From IMG/VR virus record IMGVR_UViG_2660238657_000001, positions 96,001-160,000 of that record: 64,000 nucleotides of DNA. The stretch is one strand, 5' to 3'. Positions within the stretch are counted from its first letter, which is position 1, and each line of letters starts with the position of its first letter. The notes below the pieces were generated by a model that did no database searches, was not told where the DNA came from, and saw only the letters and a list, made by a program, of their open reading frames with translations. Below, piece by piece: positions 3,052 through 49,539 of this stretch. A program made the position numbers and the translations under genes. The DNA comes from a virus. Taxonomy: Duplodnaviria; Caudoviricetes.

Positions 3052-3070
3052 AGAAAATTTTACTATTTTC

Positions 3071-3349
3071 TTATACAATATCTATGCTTACAACTTTAAC
3101 TACAGTGTCTAAGATATCCTCTGTTTGCTCTATAACATCGAATTCAAAATTGAATCCTTCCATTTCTGCTGTTTCCCAACAGAATCCATCTTCTAAAAAT
3201 TCTTTTGTGTTTCCATCGAAAATACTATCTGCATAGTCAAATCGACTACACATGTCGTTATCTAATTCTAATAACTTAACTTCTTTTCCTACGTATTCTT
3301 CTTTTAATTCTTTTAACATATTTTCCATTTTAACTATCCCCTTTACCAA
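3071..3349 (-). CDS. Hypothetical acidic protein
   Basis: ORF with GGGG RBS. Confidence 0.65.
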   Translation of the reverse strand: MVKGIVKMENMLKELKEEYVGKEVKLLELDNDMCSRFDYADSIFDGNTKEFLEDGFCWETAEMEGFNFEFDVIEQTEDILDTVVKVVSIDIV

Positions 3350-3818
3350 TTTTTACACTTTATTTTTTATCTTTATATTCTTATAGCTTTTGTATATTTT
3401 AATTATTAACTTTTGCTAAGAAAATATTTCTACTTTTGTTAAATTAAATATTAAATTTAAAGTGGAAAGAGACTTTAAGATGAACCTCTTAGAACTATTA
3501 TATTGATTTATAAATCCCAACATAACCTACCTAGGATATATATTTGATATGCATTTAAAGACTTTAATTCTTCTTCTGTTGGATTTCTTTTTTCTTTCTG
3601 ATACTTTTTACATTGTTGACAACAACCTTTCTGACACTCCCAAGACTTTAGTCTTGGGGTTCTTAGATACATTAACTTCTTTTATACTCTCATTTATTTA
3701 AACTTCAAATAAATTACAACATATAAATACTAGTTAGTTTCTCTAAGACTTTCACTAACTATCACTCTAATGAATGATTAACATTAGTATAAGGCTCATG
3801 TCTAAACCTATATAGATT

Positions 3819-5308
3819 TTATATCCCCATACTAGATATTATCTTATATCCATTTTTCTTTAATTCCTTTAATCTTTCTATCTCTTTGTCGTGTAATCTC
3901 CTAAAATTATCATAAGTTTCAATACATAAATCTCTATCTATTTTATCTAATTTTTTACCTATAACATTCATTATCAAAAATGCAGAATACATATCTCTTT
4001 GAATTTGAATATCTTCATTCCATCTATCTTTTAAGTCTTTTTTATTATATTCATCTGTAAAATGATTATATTGACTTGCTTTGCATTTCTTAGTATCTAT
4101 TTTAAATAATTGAGTATCGTTCCATTTTAGCTTATTGTCTAACATAGTTAAAAACATACTAGGTGCTTTATTAGCTAAAGATTTCCCGAATCTTTTCTTT
4201 TTATTAAATCTACCCGTTTTCTCATTAATAGTAGTTTCTTTTGTTCTAGCTTGTAATCCTTTATAATTCATAGTTTCTACTAAAAATCTATCGCCTAATG
4301 GTAATAATCTATTTATTAGTCTGTAATGACTTTGTTTTCTGATTTCAGTTTGTTTTCTTTGAATTTCTTTAATTTTATTTTGAGTTTTAATATATCTATT
4401 AGATTTGATCCATTTATCTCTATCACTCTTATTAATAGTACCATCTTCATTATATTTGTTAGGATTATTAGCACGCCTTTGTCTATCTAATTTCTTATTT
4501 AATATTCTTTTATGATTTTCTATGTTATCAATCTCAGGTGCTAATTCTAACAACTTAACATCATAATTACTTGATATTGCAATAGTTCTTGTACCTATAT
4601 CCAAGCCCACATTGCCTTTACCTATTTTATTCTTTATCTCACCTGTTTTATTATTGATCTTCATAGGTGGTATTCCTTCAAGAATTAATTGAACATAAAA
4701 TTTTGTTTTACCTCTTATAATCCTTCTAATAATTCTACAATACTTAACTCTATTTTGTAATGACATTTGAGCATATATATCATTAGCTTTTATTATTACA
4801 GGTACTTTCAATCCACTCCATATTAACAAATTATCTTGAAACCTAATACCCGTTTTATTAGATTTACCTTCAACGCTATTTAATTCACCGTATCTTTTAA
4901 AATATACTCTTTTAGCTTGGTGAAACATTAGTTTCTGAAATGAATTAAAAACTCTTGTTGCTATCTTTTGAGCTGTAAAACTATCTATATTATCTTTAAA
5001 ATGCTTTTGAATTGGTTTAACATATGTATGGAGTGAATACTCAGTTAAATCATATTTTTTATTTAATTCATTAAATTTTTTACTACGTTCTTTATCTTTA
5101 TCCATTTTAATTATATTCTTATATTCTTATATTCTTGCCTATAATCTTTTAATTCTCTTGTATGTTTATATCTTTTTAATATTTCACCTAAACAAGAGTT
5201 ATATATATTTCTGCTTATTTCTAGTCTTTTATTTAATATATCTTCTTGATACTTTTCTGTTTTTAATTTTAAAGTTAATATATAACTTGATGTTTTTGAT
5301 TTAGCCAT
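3819..5308 (-). pseudogene. tnpB: TnpB RNA-guided nuclease, frameshifted by an 8-bp duplication
   Basis: RuvC motifs GLDIG, LVE, QRD; N-terminus in 5111-5317; AAGAATAT x3 at 5113-5136 breaks the frame. Confidence 0.85.
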
Positions 5309-31714: not shown

Positions 31715-34378
31715 ATTAGTTTAAATAAGCAAATACATATATATAGTGTAGATACAAGTGCTTTTTATAATGAAAGTGAAATGAAGATACATAATAGGCT
31801 TAATAAATATTACTTATTTAGAAAAATATTAAATGAAAAATTAAATAGAATAAATCAAAAGGTGGATAAGTGCAAAGATGAATCTAATAAAACTCAATAT
31901 ATTACTCTACATAAGATTACAGAACACACATTCAAAAGTATAAATAAAAAAATAAAGATAATAAAAGATACTTTATATGAAGAGTTTAAAGCAACAAAAC
32001 AGTTTAATTATAAAAATAGAGATATTAGAGAACTAAATCAAGAATATCTAAATATAAAAAATGTAATTTCTGTATTTGAATCTACCTTAACTAGAGTTAT
32101 GCAAGTACCAATAGACACTTTAACCGAAGATTTAATAATTGTACAAACTTATTTCTTTGAAATAATCGAAGATTTAATTTTAGATGGATTCATGCTTAAA
32201 GGAGAAAAATATACTTGTTTAACCGCTAGTGCAGGACAAATAAGGACTAAAAAAACAGTATTTATTAAAGAAAGCCAATTAAAAAGATATTACGATACTC
32301 TAAGTTGTGGACTAACCATAGAACGTATTAATGAATGTGGTGGAGTTAATATAAACAAATATTTAGCGTATTTAGCCTTAAACAATAGTGCTACAGATGA
32401 GTGGAAAGATTTTGATATAACTAAAACTATAGTAGTTGATGATTTTGAAACTGATGTTAAAGAAACTGTAGACTTAATAGATGATGAAACATATACAATA
32501 GAAAGAGTTATCAAAGATGTGCCAATTCCTCACATGGATGGTTGTGGAATAATGCTACCTAAATTAGGTAGAAATAGAATGTTTAGATCACCTTGGGTCA
32601 AGGGGTTATTAATATCATCACCATTTAATAAATTTATTAGAGAAAAAAGTAAAGAATTAGGTAAATATTGTGGTATAGTAAAAGATATATATGGGAAGGA
32701 ACATGACATATTAAAAGAAAAAATAGAAATTATATTTACCAAAAGTCAATTTAAAATGTGGAAATATTATAAAAGTTGGGAAGAATATATAGACAACTTC
32801 ATCAAATATAATTGTCAAGCAGGAACATGTAATGAGGAAGAAGACAAATTTCAGAAAGCCAAAATTAATTATCAAATGTTGCAAACATTGACGGATATAA
32901 CTGATACGGAACTACAAGAGATATCTAAAAAGACTATTAATAAAATTAAAAATATAAGTAATGATAAGAATACTATGCTAAAGGTTTTAGGTGTCACTTC
33001 TGCAAATAGAAATAAAAACTATTTACAGCAATCATTAGAAATATATCCAGAGTTGTTAAATGATACATATAATAAAGAAATATTAAAAAATGTTAAAAAG
33101 AGTTTAGTGAAAGAAGGCAGAGCAGGTAAGTTAGATATAGATGCCATATATACATTCTTAGCACCTGATACATATGCATTTTGTGAATGGCTATTTTTAC
33201 ATGAAGAAAATCCTAAAGGATTATTGCAAAATGGTGAAGTATGGTGTAGCTTTTATGATAATAAACCTGAATTAGACTGTTTAAGAAGTCCTCATTTATA
33301 TAGAGAACACGCAGTAAGAAAAAATGTAGCATATAAGAGTGAGGAAAATGAAGATCGAATAAAGGAAATGAAAAGATGGTTTAATACTAAAGCAATATAT
33401 ACTAGCACACATGATATTATAAGTAAAATATTAATGTTTGATGTAGATGGTGATAAATCATTAGTATGTGCTGAACCACTACTTGTTGAAGTAGCAAAAA
33501 GAAATATGAAGGGAATTGTTCCTTTGTATTACAATATGAGAAAAGCTGAACCTACAATAATTAATAGTCAAAGTATATACAATGGATTGAAAAGTGCTTA
33601 CACAGGAGGAAATATAGGTGAAATTAGTAATAATATAAGTAAAATATGGAATAGTGACAATGCTGATATTAATGTAATTAAATTATTATGTATGGAGAAC
33701 AATTTCACGATCGATTTTGCTAAGACATTATATAAACCTCAAAGACCAAAGAAAATGAAAAAAATAATAAATCAATATACTAAATTAAAAGTACCTCATT
33801 TTTTTATATATGCTAAAGACAAAGATAATAGTAAAGTTGAAACAATTAATAATAGTGTGGTTAATAGGCTAGAAAAAACTATCCCAAATCCTAGAATTAG
33901 TTTTAAAAATACACAATTAGGTAAATTTGATTATAATATGTTAATGCATAATAAAAAAGTGAAAATGGATAAGAAAATAATTGATAAATATACCGAATTA
34001 GATTTGAAGAAACCTTTCTTAATCGGTAAGAACAAGGACGGAAAAGTTGATAATGTAGTATTCTTATATCAAGATATTAAAAATCAATTATTAGAAGTTT
34101 ATAATGATGAAGTATATATAACAGATGTTTTAATTAAATACTTATATGGAGATAAAAAAGCCAAATTCAAAACTACATTATGGGAGTGCTTTGGTAATAT
34201 AATAGTAGAAAATTTAAAATTAAATATTAAGAATAAATTAAAAGGCACAATTCAATGTGAAAAATGTGGTAAGAGAATTAAAGTATCGAATAATAGAATT
34301 AAGTATTGTGCAAAATGTGCTAAGGAAATAAATATAAAAAAGACAGCTAATAATAGAAAGAAACGTAAAAGTGTTTGA
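31715..34378 (+). CDS. YonO-like single-subunit DNA-dependent RNA polymerase
   Basis: DGCG, RSPH, FDVDGD catalytic motif, C-terminal Zn finger; N-terminal extension LNKQIHIYSVDTSAFY implies an ATT start (31712/31715) rather than ATG 31781. Confidence 0.9.
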   Translation: MSLNKQIHIYSVDTSAFYNESEMKIHNRLNKYYLFRKILNEKLNRINQKVDKCKDESNKTQYITLHKITEHTFKSINKKIKIIKDTLYEEFKATKQFNYKNRDIRELNQEYLNIKNVISVFESTLTRVMQVPIDTLTEDLIIVQTYFFEIIEDLILDGFMLKGEKYTCLTASAGQIRTKKTVFIKESQLKRYYDTLSCGLTIERINECGGVNINKYLAYLALNNSATDEWKDFDITKTIVVDDFETDVKETVDLIDDETYTIERVIKDVPIPHMDGCGIMLPKLGRNRMFRSPWVKGLLISSPFNKFIREKSKELGKYCGIVKDIYGKEHDILKEKIEIIFTKSQFKMWKYYKSWEEYIDNFIKYNCQAGTCNEEEDKFQKAKINYQMLQTLTDITDTELQEISKKTINKIKNISNDKNTMLKVLGVTSANRNKNYLQQSLEIYPELLNDTYNKEILKNVKKSLVKEGRAGKLDIDAIYTFLAPDTYAFCEWLFLHEENPKGLLQNGEVWCSFYDNKPELDCLRSPHLYREHAVRKNVAYKSEENEDRIKEMKRWFNTKAIYTSTHDIISKILMFDVDGDKSLVCAEPLLVEVAKRNMKGIVPLYYNMRKAEPTIINSQSIYNGLKSAYTGGNIGEISNNISKIWNSDNADINVIKLLCMENNFTIDFAKTLYKPQRPKKMKKIINQYTKLKVPHFFIYAKDKDNSKVETINNSVVNRLEKTIPNPRISFKNTQLGKFDYNMLMHNKKVKMDKKIIDKYTELDLKKPFLIGKNKDGKVDNVVFLYQDIKNQLLEVYNDEVYITDVLIKYLYGDKKAKFKTTLWECFGNIIVENLKLNIKNKLKGTIQCEKCGKRIKVSNNRIKYCAKCAKEINIKKTANNRKKRKSV

Positions 34379-35383: not shown

Positions 35384-35474
35384 GGATTGTTAGTTTAAGT
35401 TGGTAAAATACTGATTTTATATACACCTCCCCTTAAATAAATCAGAGATATGAGTTCGAATCTCATGCAATCCT
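35384..35474 (+). ncRNA. tRNA-like RNA with 25-nt expanded anticodon loop
   Basis: Acceptor GGATTGT/GCAATCC, D-arm with TGG, stem CTGAT/ATCAG, T-arm ATGAG-TTCGAAT-CTCAT. Confidence 0.75.
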
Positions 35475-35517
35475 CCCTCCCTTAAAGGCTTAACGCCGAT
35501 TGAATTCACAATAATAT

Positions 35518-35592
35518 GTAGGTATGGTGTAACGGCTAACATGATAGTCTCCAAAACTATTGATGTAGGTTCGATTCCTACTACCTATGCCA
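35518..35592 (+). tRNA. trnW: tRNA-Trp (CCA)
   Basis: Full cloverleaf, ATAGT-CTCCAAA-ACTAT anticodon arm, GTAGG-TTCGATT-CCTAC T-arm, encoded 3' CCA. Confidence 0.92.
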
Positions 35593-35631: not shown

Positions 35632-36270
35632 ATGGTACAAGAAATAACAATAGCAAGAGCATTAACAGAATTAAAAACTTTAGATAAGAAAATTAATAAA
35701 AAAATAAGCGAAAGTAAATTTGCAATAGTATGTAAGCAATCATCAAAAAAAGTTGACGGTATTCAGACTAGAGAGGAATTTAATCAAAGTGCTAAATCTT
35801 CTTATGATAGTATAGTTGATTTAATTGCTAGAAGGAATGAAATAAAAACTAAAATAGTAGCTAGTAATGCAATAACAAAAGTAGCAATAGCAAATAAAGA
35901 ATATACTGTTGCTGAAGCAATAGAAAGAAAAAATAGTATAGAACTAGATAAGATGTTATTGGTATCTATGAGAAATGACTATAATAGAGCGTTGGCTTTA
36001 TATGAATCAAGTAATAATAAAGTAGAACAGCAATTAAATGAACATTTAGAAACTATGTTTGGTACTGAAACTAAGCAAAAGGATAATGATGTAACAATAT
36101 TTACAGAAAATTTCAGGAAACAACATGGATATGAAATAATTGATCCACTCAAACTAAAAGAGAAAGTAGATAAATTGACAGATGAAATAGATAGTTTTGA
36201 AACAGAAGTAGATGCTTGTCTAAGTGAATCAAATGCTATAACTAAGATAACAATTTCAGATGATAAATAA
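35632..36270 (+). CDS. Coiled-coil protein (DUF6847/DIP1984-like pattern)
   Basis: Internal repeat ITIARAL / YTVAEAI, long heptads, C-terminal IDPL..LSESNAIT. Confidence 0.75.
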   Translation: MVQEITIARALTELKTLDKKINKKISESKFAIVCKQSSKKVDGIQTREEFNQSAKSSYDSIVDLIARRNEIKTKIVASNAITKVAIANKEYTVAEAIERKNSIELDKMLLVSMRNDYNRALALYESSNNKVEQQLNEHLETMFGTETKQKDNDVTIFTENFRKQHGYEIIDPLKLKEKVDKLTDEIDSFETEVDACLSESNAITKITISDDK

Positions 36271-36290
36271 GTAATATAAGCTTTACATAG

Positions 36291-36639
36291 TAATATATTG
36301 TGAGTTATATGAAAACTAAGAATCTATATTCGCCTGTGGTTGGCGTTACAACCACAACTAAAAATTTCAAGAATGGGATATTGAAAAATAGAAGAATAAA
36401 CGTAGGAATACGTTATACAACAATGATATACAATAGTGATATATCATTAATATCTGTAAAAGTTCAAAGTTGTAAAGTTTAAATTTCAATGTTCAAAATT
36501 CAAAGTTCTTATGAATTCAAAGTTGTAGAGTTTAAAAATTAAGGTTATAAAGTTTTTTAAAATCTATGATATAGGTTTAGGAGATAATATAGTTATCCGT
36601 TAGAAGTCCACATAGCTATATAATTCACAAATTATATTA
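36291..36639 (+). ncRNA. ~350-nt structured RNA with internal AAAGTTY heptamer array
   Basis: Closing stem TAATATA-TTGTGAGTTATAT / ATATAATTCACAA-TATATTA; internal hairpins; repeats at 36459-36555. Confidence 0.65.
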
Positions 36640-37253
36640 AATTAATGACCGTTAACTTAATGTTAGAAATGCTACCATATTGGTCGGTAAGCTTGGGATG
36701 TAGATGCCCGTAATTGGAGTGGAAGAACACGTGGGTTACTAGTTCGAATCCATTATATAATAACAACTATATTACTCACGAGTGGGGTAATAGTAAAAAT
36801 TCTCTGTGGTGGAGAATCAAAATATGAGCCAAATGTTTAATGGTGGGTGATTCGCTCCCCACTACAACTTTGGTGAGTGAATAATAACCTCACTAATGTT
36901 GTAATATTTTTATGTTTGGGATTGACATGAATTAAAAAAATTAATTACAAAAATTAATCTCTGTTATGAAACAAACACTTACTTTTGATAGGGTTGAGTG
37001 TTTTCATGTCCAGAAACATAATATTTAGAGTTTATCTTATAGAAATAAGGTAGACTCTTTTTATTTAAATTTTAAAAATTAAATTAAAAATATTCCATAA
37101 ATTAAGGTAGCAATATATACATACACATACTATACTCCATGTATAGAATTAGTCCTCCATATATAGGAGTGAAATGTGCGTGTGTGTATATTGGTGCTTT
37201 AATTAGCATACATTGGAGGTTTAACAGTACCCAAAAACTGTGGAGGACAATTT

Positions 37254-48900: not shown

Positions 48901-49539
48901 TATAGAAAACTTAATAATATTAGAAATAACCACATACATCAAACTACAAATAAAATAATAAAATTAAAGCCATACAGAGTGGTAATGGAAGACTTAAATG
49001 TTCAAGGTATGCTTAAAAATAAACATCTATCAAAAGCAATACAAGAACAATGTTTTTATGAATTTATAAGACAAATGAAATATAAATGTGAATGGAATAG
49101 CATTAAATTCATACAAGTTGATAGATTTTATCCTAGCAGTAAAACTTGTTCATGTTGTGGGAATATCAAAAAAGATTTAAAACTATCAGATAGAGTTTAC
49201 AAGTGTTATAAATGTGGTTTAGCTATTGATAGAGATAAAAATGCAAGTATTAATCTTAGTAATTATAAAATAGCATAATTGGTATAGAGAAATTATGCTA
49301 TGTGTACCGTGCGTTGTACGGGAATTTAAGTCCTTGGAGAGTTATACCAAACTAGAGTAGAATAAGGAATTATTCAAAATAGAACTTTAAGAAGAGGAAA
49401 GTTGTTTAGTAATGAACAACACATATAGAATTTATATATTTATAATTTTTTATAAGTTTTATGCAACGGTAGACCAAAAGCAGAAGATAGTGATAATGGC
49501 ATAAATGATAATACCGAGCAATGGAGAGATAATCAATAA
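45970..49539 (+). CDS. Portal protein, join(45970..47420,49470..49539), interrupted by IStron
   Basis: Follows terminase; scarless join gives ...DRGRPKAEDSDNGINDNTEQWRDNQ*. Confidence 0.8.
47421..47880 (+). ncRNA. Group I ribozyme core of the IStron
   Basis: P1 GAGGT/GCCTC; conserved P, Q, R, S elements. Confidence 0.85.
47891..48040 (-). CDS. 49-aa Arc/ribbon-helix-helix protein inside IStron
   Basis: TRTQITIEKDLKKQLEQVAKEQNRSFNNLV; GAGGTG RBS, TTG start. Confidence 0.8.
   Translation of the reverse strand: MTISNDKTRTQITIEKDLKKQLEQVAKEQNRSFNNLVITILKDFMSKHS
48092..48120 (+). promoter_or_regulatory. tnpB promoter with palindromic operator
   Basis: TTGACA-N17-TATCAT containing GGTGTTAACACC. 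Confidence 0.7.
48148..49278 (+). CDS. tnpB: TnpB RNA-guided endonuclease (intact motifs)
   Basis: GIDLG, MEDL, CSCCG/CYKCG Zn finger, DRDKNASIN. Confidence 0.95.
   Translation: MIKAVKIRLFPTKEQEVLMFKSCGVARFTYNWGLNRWNEIYKSGEKPNKIKVRTEFNNTLKKDDNYKWLKEVSGQVTAKSFDDLKDGFDRFFKGLSGYPKFKTKKKSKKSFYVRYDSIKFKDHKVNFEKIGKVKYNTNYKIPNLSKYNNPRCHFDGKYWYLTLGFEHYENQVKLNKDLSIGIDLGVKDLAVVNCLDKPIKNINKSVKVRKLKKRLKRLQRQVSRKYLMNKQNNKFIKTNNIIKLEHEIRLIYRKLNNIRNNHIHQTTNKIIKLKPYRVVMEDLNVQGMLKNKHLSKAIQEQCFYEFIRQMKYKCEWNSIKFIQVDRFYPSSKTCSCCGNIKKDLKLSDRVYKCYKCGLAIDRDKNASINLSNYKIA
49279..49486 (+). ncRNA. Putative omega-RNA scaffold plus guide (guide starts 49470)
   Basis: Structured right end between tnpB stop and element end; expected from TnpB biology. 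Confidence 0.6.

Follow-up and report, generated by a model that had tools for sequence, protein, structure and literature searches.

Can a small protein gene and the repeat-bearing RNA encoded directly behind it constitute a ribonucleoprotein system that no catalogue yet lists, and if so, how would the two components act together? The question is raised by a locus in a 64,000-nucleotide stretch of viral DNA (Caudoviricetes; positions 96,001 to 160,000 of IMG/VR record IMGVR_UViG_2660238657_000001), hereafter the window. A gene for a 212-residue protein, taken from the list of open reading frames (ORFs), occupies positions 35632–36270 of the + strand. An RNA element of about 350 nt follows at 36291–36639, its first stem beginning 20 nt past the ORF stop codon, which ends at 36270. 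An initial annotation of the window, made from the sequence alone, had described this ORF, the 20-nt gap and a closing stem of about 20 bp, and both the coordinates and the minimum-energy fold agree with that description. The window region is 91% identical across 1.5 kb to Clostridium phage D-1873. The locus is, with high confidence, a real and conserved module of a protein gene and a structured RNA, read on the + strand.

Linkage of the protein gene and the RNA

One genome per species was scanned for loci encoding a relative of the protein. The best 80 of the 93 loci recovered were kept and three from viral contigs were added, so that with the window there are 84 sources. In most loci the gene is followed by an ORF-free gap of 250–800 nt, and the same layout is visible by eye. 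An nhmmer profile of the repeat tract and 3′ domain, built from 25 of the sources, matched all 84 on the + strand just 3′ of the gene, and a covariance model (R1), built from 47 of them, likewise found the RNA core in 84/84. The nhmmer profile has a single match in the whole 64-kb window, and the RNA occurs once per genome in five of the five genomes counted. In one bacterial (Bacillus-type) family the protein is encoded by 16 of 91 genomes, and the RNA lies alongside in every one of the 16. Phage homologues of only 30–40% identity were also followed by the RNA, with an R1 match 3′ of the gene in all four distant phages tested: phiCD211 (57 bits), the T5-like Salmonella phage Shivani (58 bits), Lactococcus phage 949 (49 bits) and Vibrio phage Cody (48 bits). 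The initial annotation had named homologues without a downstream closed stem and repeats as the finding that would speak against its proposal. No protein gene without adjacent RNA was found among the loci and genomes surveyed, and the linkage is complete in the 84 loci, the four distant phages and the 16 genomes. Since the pair came through this comparison and its RNA lies outside Rfam, the earlier proposal of a candidate new ribonucleoprotein pair is supported.

Two additional RNA hits in that family were accounted for, and one of them shows that gene and RNA can be lost together. Genome G025 carries a decayed copy at the same syntenic site (L085, 2568–2718), where the 3′ part of the RNA and the terminator remain directly after an amino-acid permease gene, while the protein gene and the 5′ RNA domain are gone. 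The other hit, an RNA “match” in genome G065, proved to be an unrelated tandem repeat with a longer unit of about 22 nt. The 16 Bacillus-family genomes all carry the module at one chromosomal site and the Lysinibacillus loci carry it at another, and it is found in Brevibacillus too; its bacterial neighbours are varied, ordinary chromosomal genes. The core match is split in L029, a contig of a Bacillales metagenome-assembled genome, with the two parts (2928–2990 and 3054–3142) about 60 nt apart, perhaps through an insertion inside the repeat tract. L083, a contig of a metagenome-assembled genome labelled Parabacteroides, carries two twister-P5 ribozymes, and behind its protein gene the RNA core is present twice in succession, both copies being weak (coordinates noted: 21–82, 587–644, 3761–3907 and 4070–4265).

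The protein also occurs in hundreds of phages. A tblastn search found it in 747 of 50,697 phage records, including 285 from Salmonella and 140 from Escherichia phages, with others from Vibrio, Pseudomonas, Bacillus and Lactococcus phages. The phage modules sit among early, nucleotide-metabolism and tRNA genes. In phage T5 the module is 98% identical to that of Shivani, and its RNA lies in a 367-nt unannotated gap between ORF080 and the early promoter T5P23. An HNH endonuclease gene lies directly 3′ of the RNA in Shivani (L088) and Cody (L089), though not in T5, and looks like a homing-endonuclease insertion.

Architecture of the RNA and its heptamer tract

The element is a structured RNA in which a long closing stem, P1, joins a 5′ domain (GAAAAY, a pseudoknotted hairpin and variable hairpins) to a 3′ domain of nested helices. 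P1 pairs 36291–36311 with 36617–36639 on the + strand (about 21 bp with a 2-nt bulge). It is present in the minimum-energy fold and has 12 consensus pairs across 25 homologues, 11 of them with changes on both sides. A 361-nt stretch folds with z = −4.8 on the + strand, where none of 100 shuffles was as good, against z = −3.1 on the − strand. A small ORF at 36300–36482 was excluded by a 1-nt indel in the D-1873 comparison. Directly after P1, the unpaired GAAAAC that had been noticed at the outset lies at 36311–36316, and its G-A-A is invariant in the 25 aligned homologues. It is followed by the pseudoknotted hairpin (36331–36356), whose stem pairs 36335–36342 with 36349–36356 and whose loop GCG (36343–36345) can pair with CGC at 36331–36333. 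The hairpin itself, TGTGGTTG/CAACCACA (36335–36356), had already been proposed; it is upheld by a compensatory change from G-C to A-U in D-1873, and all six of its pairs covary in 25 sequences. Read by eye, the pseudoknot partners swap between lineages (CGC/GCG, GACCC/GGGTC, AGGT/ACCT versus ACCT/AGGT, and CACCTT/AAGGTG), and in some lineages the hairpin loop pairs with a downstream partner instead.

The remainder of the 5′ domain is a variable region (36357–36455) with local hairpins that include 36400–36415 and 36423–36449. Its length differs between loci, and the whole RNA ranges from 244 to 403 nt. The hairpins listed in the initial annotation fared differently here. AACGTA/TACGTT behaves as a unit, being cleanly removed by an 18-nt deletion in D-1873, while TTCAA/TTGAA is not kept in that phage. 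A second long-range helix, AATCTATAT/ATATAGGTT, is predicted in the window lineage and is supported there by one G-U-preserving change in the D-1873 comparison, but the helix found at that place family-wide is CTATG/CATAG. This family-wide helix, Pa, belongs to the 3′ domain (36559–36617), which consists of AAAAUC, Pa, an inner hairpin (36582–36596) and GCU before the 3′ strand of P1, and which is 63–68 nt long across loci. R1 matches the window at 36454–36617 with 81.5 bits. Pa pairs CTATG (36564–36568) with CATAG (36611–36615); in 86 sequences its pairing reaches 99.8%, and three of its pairs covary. The 3′ domain as a whole has a covariation score of 0.414. Shuffles give 0.165, none of 500 reaching the observed value, and sliding the partners yields no more than 0.145. 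Inspection by eye also shows covariation in helices Pb and Pc and in a loop-to-3′ pseudoknot, the last being a candidate that is less well supported.

Between the two domains lies the heptamer tract. According to Tandem Repeats Finder the period is 7, and the copies number 7 at 36459–36508 and 13 at 36459–36555, which agrees with the initial count of about 13 AAAGUUY heptamers in period and copy number. The conserved core is U-N-A-A, however, and the units fall into a block of seven and a block of five, of which some are 8 nt long and one is degenerate. Block 1 (36456–36510; Tandem Repeats Finder and 77 sequences) comprises seven Y-U-N-A-A-R-G units and ends in UCUU, and block 2 (36517–36555) holds the window’s five units, as read from the table of spacings. 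Most members of the family have 7 + 4 units, the window thus having one extra. Across 77 distinct sequences, 11 positions always carry an A: seven at 7-nt spacing and then four at 7-nt spacing. A U stands two bases 5′ of the invariant A in 63–100% of sequences depending on the unit and in 91% pooled, and the pooled unit reads Y 73%, U 91%, N, A 100%, A 86% and R 85%. Every within-block spacing is exactly 7 nt in 63 of the 77 sequences, and the inter-block distance is 15–17 nt. In the RNAalifold consensus the tract of about 90 nt is unpaired except for a 4-pair AGCU/AAGC helix, which was taken as spurious. A search of the window with a degenerate heptamer pattern was set aside, as its 10 matches (3.1 expected) were mostly AT-rich noise.

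A U-G pair in P1 is kept in 19 of 25 sequences, which fits the + strand only. In 55 of 80 loci the RNA is succeeded by a hairpin with a T run that resembles a terminator and starts a median of 24 nt past the 3′ domain; among control stretches, 5 of 81 have one. At the Bacillus altitudinis locus, contigs from two RNA-library runs of one study (record 7 at 3501–3894 and record 11 at 3370–3940) span the 3′ end of the ORF and the whole RNA, a weak hint of transcription. Runs X2 and X3 yielded multi-kb contigs that are uninformative on transcripts. In runs X5 and X7 the upstream permease gene (L067, 1500–2840) is without cover and contig depths are 5.8 versus 163, but neither observation was counted as evidence.

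The partner protein and its possible assembly on the RNA

The ORF product belongs to phrog_1491 (E 2.7e-71), a family whose label “tail fiber” is unverified. A protein search returned 289 related cluster representatives of 207–213 residues. No name was found for the family in Pfam, NCBIfam or PADLOC, where the window protein was scanned at E ≤ 1 and family members were compared with Pfam (35) and PADLOC (4). The AF2 model (pLDDT 91) has five helices and a small four-stranded sheet. The initial description of an all-helical protein with an internal duplication therefore stands as regards its mostly helical nature, but four short strands are present, and the “duplication” amounts to one 19-residue SNAITK motif that occurs twice (two SNA.T motifs; 8/19 identical, E 0.005). 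Charge is divided along the chain, the N-terminal half being basic (+7 net) and the C-terminal half acidic (−10 net). The conserved polar residues R9, R68, K72, S78-N79, T82, T92, E98-R99-K100, D194 and S200-N201 lie at helix ends beside the strands. Comparison with solved structures gave no convincing relative. Foldseek gave zero matches to the PDB at E ≤ 1e-3, and in BFVD eight matches at that threshold were all uncharacterised or unnamed phage proteins. The ESM Atlas contributed unnamed clusters and a weak DUF6847 match. The standout row of a wide VIA-align search, 3kdq_A, is a protein of unknown function whose similarity (Z 11.1, root-mean-square deviation 7.8, 151 residues) is below the trusted level for helical models. 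Sequence comparisons of 35 members with Pfam, and a sequence search of the PDB, found nothing beyond coiled-coil noise. No longer or fused forms of the protein were found, a negative that the search tool itself rates as weak evidence.

An identity as phage tail fibre was rejected, as the neighbours of the gene are early, replication, nucleotide-metabolism and tRNA genes, and it is also found at chromosomal sites outside prophages. The sole receptor-binding protein in the fold search (Z 7.2) matches over one helical hairpin and is within the noise for helical models.

The best explanation overall, put forward tentatively, is that the protein assembles on the phased tract to give a particle of fixed size. 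It is suggested by three things: gene and RNA are strictly linked, the units are constant in number and phase, and there is an analogy with TRAP and HutP, set out below. Judged as a claim of its own, binding of the repeat tract by the protein as an oligomer is possible but somewhat doubtful. The protein would recognise the U-N-A-A core, probably through a contact surface made of a conserved “head” (the two SNA.T motifs with R9, R68, K72, R99 and K100) together with the basic N-terminal half. Protomers might then line up side by side along the tract, each heptamer accommodating one protomer or half-site, and the product would be a particle of fixed stoichiometry, either a ring or a short filament, clamped by the folded ends of the RNA. 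The arrangement that the initial annotation had imagined, one subunit per repeat in a ring or filament, would fit the strict 7-nt phase and the fixed unit number read from the sequences.

Several observations weigh against such an assembly. The family is acidic overall (median isoelectric point 5.5, net charge −4), which is unusual for the coat of an RNA of about 90 nt, and no known RNA-binding fold or family was recognised for the protein by Pfam, Foldseek against the PDB, VIA-align or PDB sequence searches. The window’s own 3′ domain and repeat spacing depart from the consensus: its R1 score of 81.5 bits and those of two near-identical relatives (75–80) compare with 84–147 for most loci, although seven R1 matches in four other loci (L024, L029, L073 and L083) score below the window. 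Pb, Pc and the 3′ pseudoknot are only 58–76% paired in the machine alignment; register shifts remain in Pb, Pc and the pseudoknots with MAFFT as well as with the covariance model, so that the pair counts are underestimates. The RNA-library evidence consists of assembled contigs, from which neither ends nor strand nor abundance can be read and in which DNA may be present.

The closest precedents are regulatory proteins that bind phased motifs in mRNA. The TRAP protein of Bacillus forms an 11-subunit ring around which the trp leader RNA is wrapped, with about 11 phased short motifs and one motif per subunit. The present RNA shares with TRAP targets a single-stranded tract of about 11 phased short motifs, but TRAP motifs are triplets placed 2–3 nt apart in an mRNA leader and serve attenuation, whereas here the period is strictly 7 nt and the tract is split 7 + 4 inside a dedicated, clamped and pseudoknotted RNA. 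The protein is also helical and has no match to the TRAP family in Pfam. HutP sites have a 7-nt motif period. The hut terminator presents two phased motif blocks, separated by a 12–17-nt linker, that are bound on two faces of one oligomer (PMC2425495). The two blocks of the heptamer tract and the 15–17 nt between them resemble this layout, but HutP reads 3 + 3 XAG motifs in an mRNA terminator, unlike the 7 + 4 UNAA motifs of a non-coding RNA that follows the protein gene, and no sequence or fold relation to HutP was found. A phased, single-stranded tract of conserved motifs, as in TRAP and HutP sites, is thus present, while membership of the protein in either family finds no Pfam match, and fold searches listed neither, which is not proof of absence.

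The same features can be read differently if the RNA is the main actor. Its tract would then serve some host or phage factor, not the adjacent protein, as multivalent decoy, sponge or docking site, and the adjacent protein would do no more than stabilise, fold or regulate the RNA. This is unlikely, although every heptamer fits the YUNR signature of a U-turn and resembles an anticodon loop (Y32-U33-N34-A35-A36-R37); the YUNR motif is reported to form a U-turn in which the following bases are presented for pairing (PMC6562991). The phage modules adjoin tRNA genes, and the overall acidity of the protein is also in line with a lesser role for it. On the other side stand the strict linkage in 84/84 loci and 16/16 genomes and the joint loss of gene and RNA in one genome, which together argue that protein and RNA act together. 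Moreover, no candidate third factor was identified, and enzymes acting on anticodon loops normally require a closing stem, which the heptamer units lack. A cis-acting role, in which the element is the 3′ untranslated region that controls stability or translation of the protein’s mRNA (for instance by autoregulation) and forms no free-standing particle, is distinctly unlikely. It would account for an RNA that begins 4–20 nt past the stop codon in most loci and for a terminator that follows the RNA with none between gene and RNA, and one RNA-library contig does bridge the 3′ end of the ORF and the RNA. Yet known 3′ stabilisers are far simpler than this RNA of 250–400 nt, which has two candidate pseudoknots and 11 phased sites that do not vary, and conservation of the RNA equals or exceeds that of the protein across phyla.

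The initial annotation had also suggested a type III-like toxin–antitoxin (TA) or defence module. In such a TA or abortive-infection pair, the protein would be toxic and the repeat RNA would neutralise it. Type III TA systems (ToxIN, CptIN, TenpIN) carry direct repeats of about 34–36 nt upstream of the toxin gene, with a terminator between, and form a defined protein–RNA complex. The likeness lies in a protein gene paired with an adjacent tandem-repeat RNA, in their constant co-occurrence and joint loss, and in the position of some bacterial copies near the conflict genes AbiEii, TOTE primase and an RdRP-like gene. The present module departs from these systems, however, in the size of its repeats, in gene order and in where the terminator stands: the units are of 7 nt, the RNA is 3′ of the gene in 84/84 sources, and the terminator comes after the RNA in 55/80 loci. 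Outside the repeats the RNA forms one large fold in place of a string of identical units, the predicted protein fold is helical, and no ToxN, AbiQ, other toxin or defence family was matched in PADLOC or Pfam at E ≤ 1. With fixed chromosomal sites in Bacillus-family and Lysinibacillus carriers and an early gene in the lytic phage T5, this suggestion is disfavoured and now appears very improbable. Exceedingly improbable, and already largely refuted, is a role at the level of DNA, with the repeats acting as iterons, partition site or origin, or the stem arms forming the inverted termini of a small mobile element. Such DNA sites typically show short, AT-rich tandem repeats and an inverted repeat like the 20-bp one here, and the window resembles a plasmid-like prophage. 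Nevertheless, the stem arms covary and differ between species and are not copies of one sequence, U-G pairs fit a single strand, there is one copy per genome, the orientation to the gene is fixed with a terminator following, and ordinary chromosomal sites lack replication or partition genes.

Within assembly of the protein on the tract, a more specific version may be considered, though it is a long shot: the ring or filament particle would hold the 11–12 heptamers as U-turns that mimic the anticodon loop (Y32-U33-N34-A35-A36-R37). Such a particle could serve as decoy, sensor or docking platform, in each case multivalent, for enzymes that recognise or cleave anticodon loops. More generally, the position of the module among early genes beside tRNA genes in phages makes a role in RNA- or tRNA-centred phage–host conflict plausible, but this is guesswork. 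T5-like phages have an anti-defence island in their tRNA region that encodes the retron anti-defence protein Rad; in phage SP15, Rad is ORF75 (189 residues, TOPRIM/RNase domain) and the blocker of retron Ec83 is ORF71–73 (10.1101/2023.03.15.532788). Rad, too, is encoded in the tRNA-rich early region of T5-like phages, but identity of the module with Rad or with SP15 ORF71–73 (a retron Ec83 lead) was rejected, the gene in question here being E0157_083, about 5 kb away.

Surroundings in the window, novelty and significance

The “tRNA cluster” of the initial annotation is confirmed insofar as tRNA or tRNA-like genes are nearby, but there are just two, both directly 5′ of the ORF (35384–35592, + strand; Rfam 47.6 and 64.2 bits). 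The nearer one is a tRNA-Trp (35518–35592, + strand), found with Rfam and the sole tRNA of this pair that ARAGORN calls. The other, at 35384–35474 on the + strand (Rfam tRNA, 47.6 bits), is not called by ARAGORN. An insert of 19 nt enlarges its anticodon loop, which includes ACACCUCCCCUU, and the region matching D-1873 covers this gene. On the 3′ side of the RNA, about 270 nt of non-coding sequence (36640–36912, + strand) are highly conserved with D-1873, with divergence past about 36912, and a third relative shares the first ~85 nt only. This stretch contains tRNA-like pieces, including one resembling TTCGAATCC, but gives no tRNA call and a fold z of only −1.3.

The wider neighbourhood is phage-like and encodes an HU protein, a Bro-N anti-repressor, a metallophosphoesterase and a large protein of unknown function. 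Just 5′ of the Bro-N gene is a long imperfect inverted repeat (37100–37204) with 39-nt arms that are 74% complementary; it gives weak matches to microRNA models on both strands. A protein of unknown function with 865 residues (31781–34378, + strand; phrog_8308) is without a Pfam domain and has a cysteine-rich, zinc-ribbon-like C-terminus. A RAGATH-18 RNA at 49331–49400 (+ strand; 64.6 bits) exceeds the Rfam gathering score.

The element belongs to no named family, in keeping with the initial annotation, which had been unable to assign it. In Rfam 15, no family matches the element in the window at the gathering score or at E ≤ 10, and none matches it in 18 bacterial and viral loci at the gathering score or in four phage loci at E ≤ 0.1. 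Specifically, no Rfam model for ROOL, GOLLD, OLE, raiA, HEARO, STAXI, Y RNA, tmRNA, tRNA or group I and II introns matches the element. ROOL, GOLLD and other large ornate RNAs are structured, non-coding, of unknown function and often found in phages near tRNA genes (cf. 10.1101/2024.12.08.627333). The present RNA resembles them in being structured, non-coding and located in phages near tRNA genes; they form RNA-only assemblies without a fixed partner gene, whereas this RNA is smaller (244–403 nt), carries the heptamer tract and is strictly linked to a protein. A literature search, whose coverage stopped short of subscription journals, found no description of the RNA or the protein. Both are absent from the family libraries searched.

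The finding corrects the label “tail fiber protein” on many of the phage records listed. It would add a class of structured RNA with an obligate protein partner in at least 747 sequenced phages, including the model phage T5, and the module also stands at conserved chromosomal sites in the surveyed Bacillus-family genomes and in Lysinibacillus, and occurs in Brevibacillus. Nothing catalogued corresponds to a tract whose 11 sites keep a strict 7-nt phase between clamping, pseudoknotted domains, and the design suggests a particle of fixed size built on an RNA ruler. If that particle were indeed an anticodon mimic, this would explain the retention of the module next to tRNA genes in phages, T5 among them, and its domestication by some bacteria.

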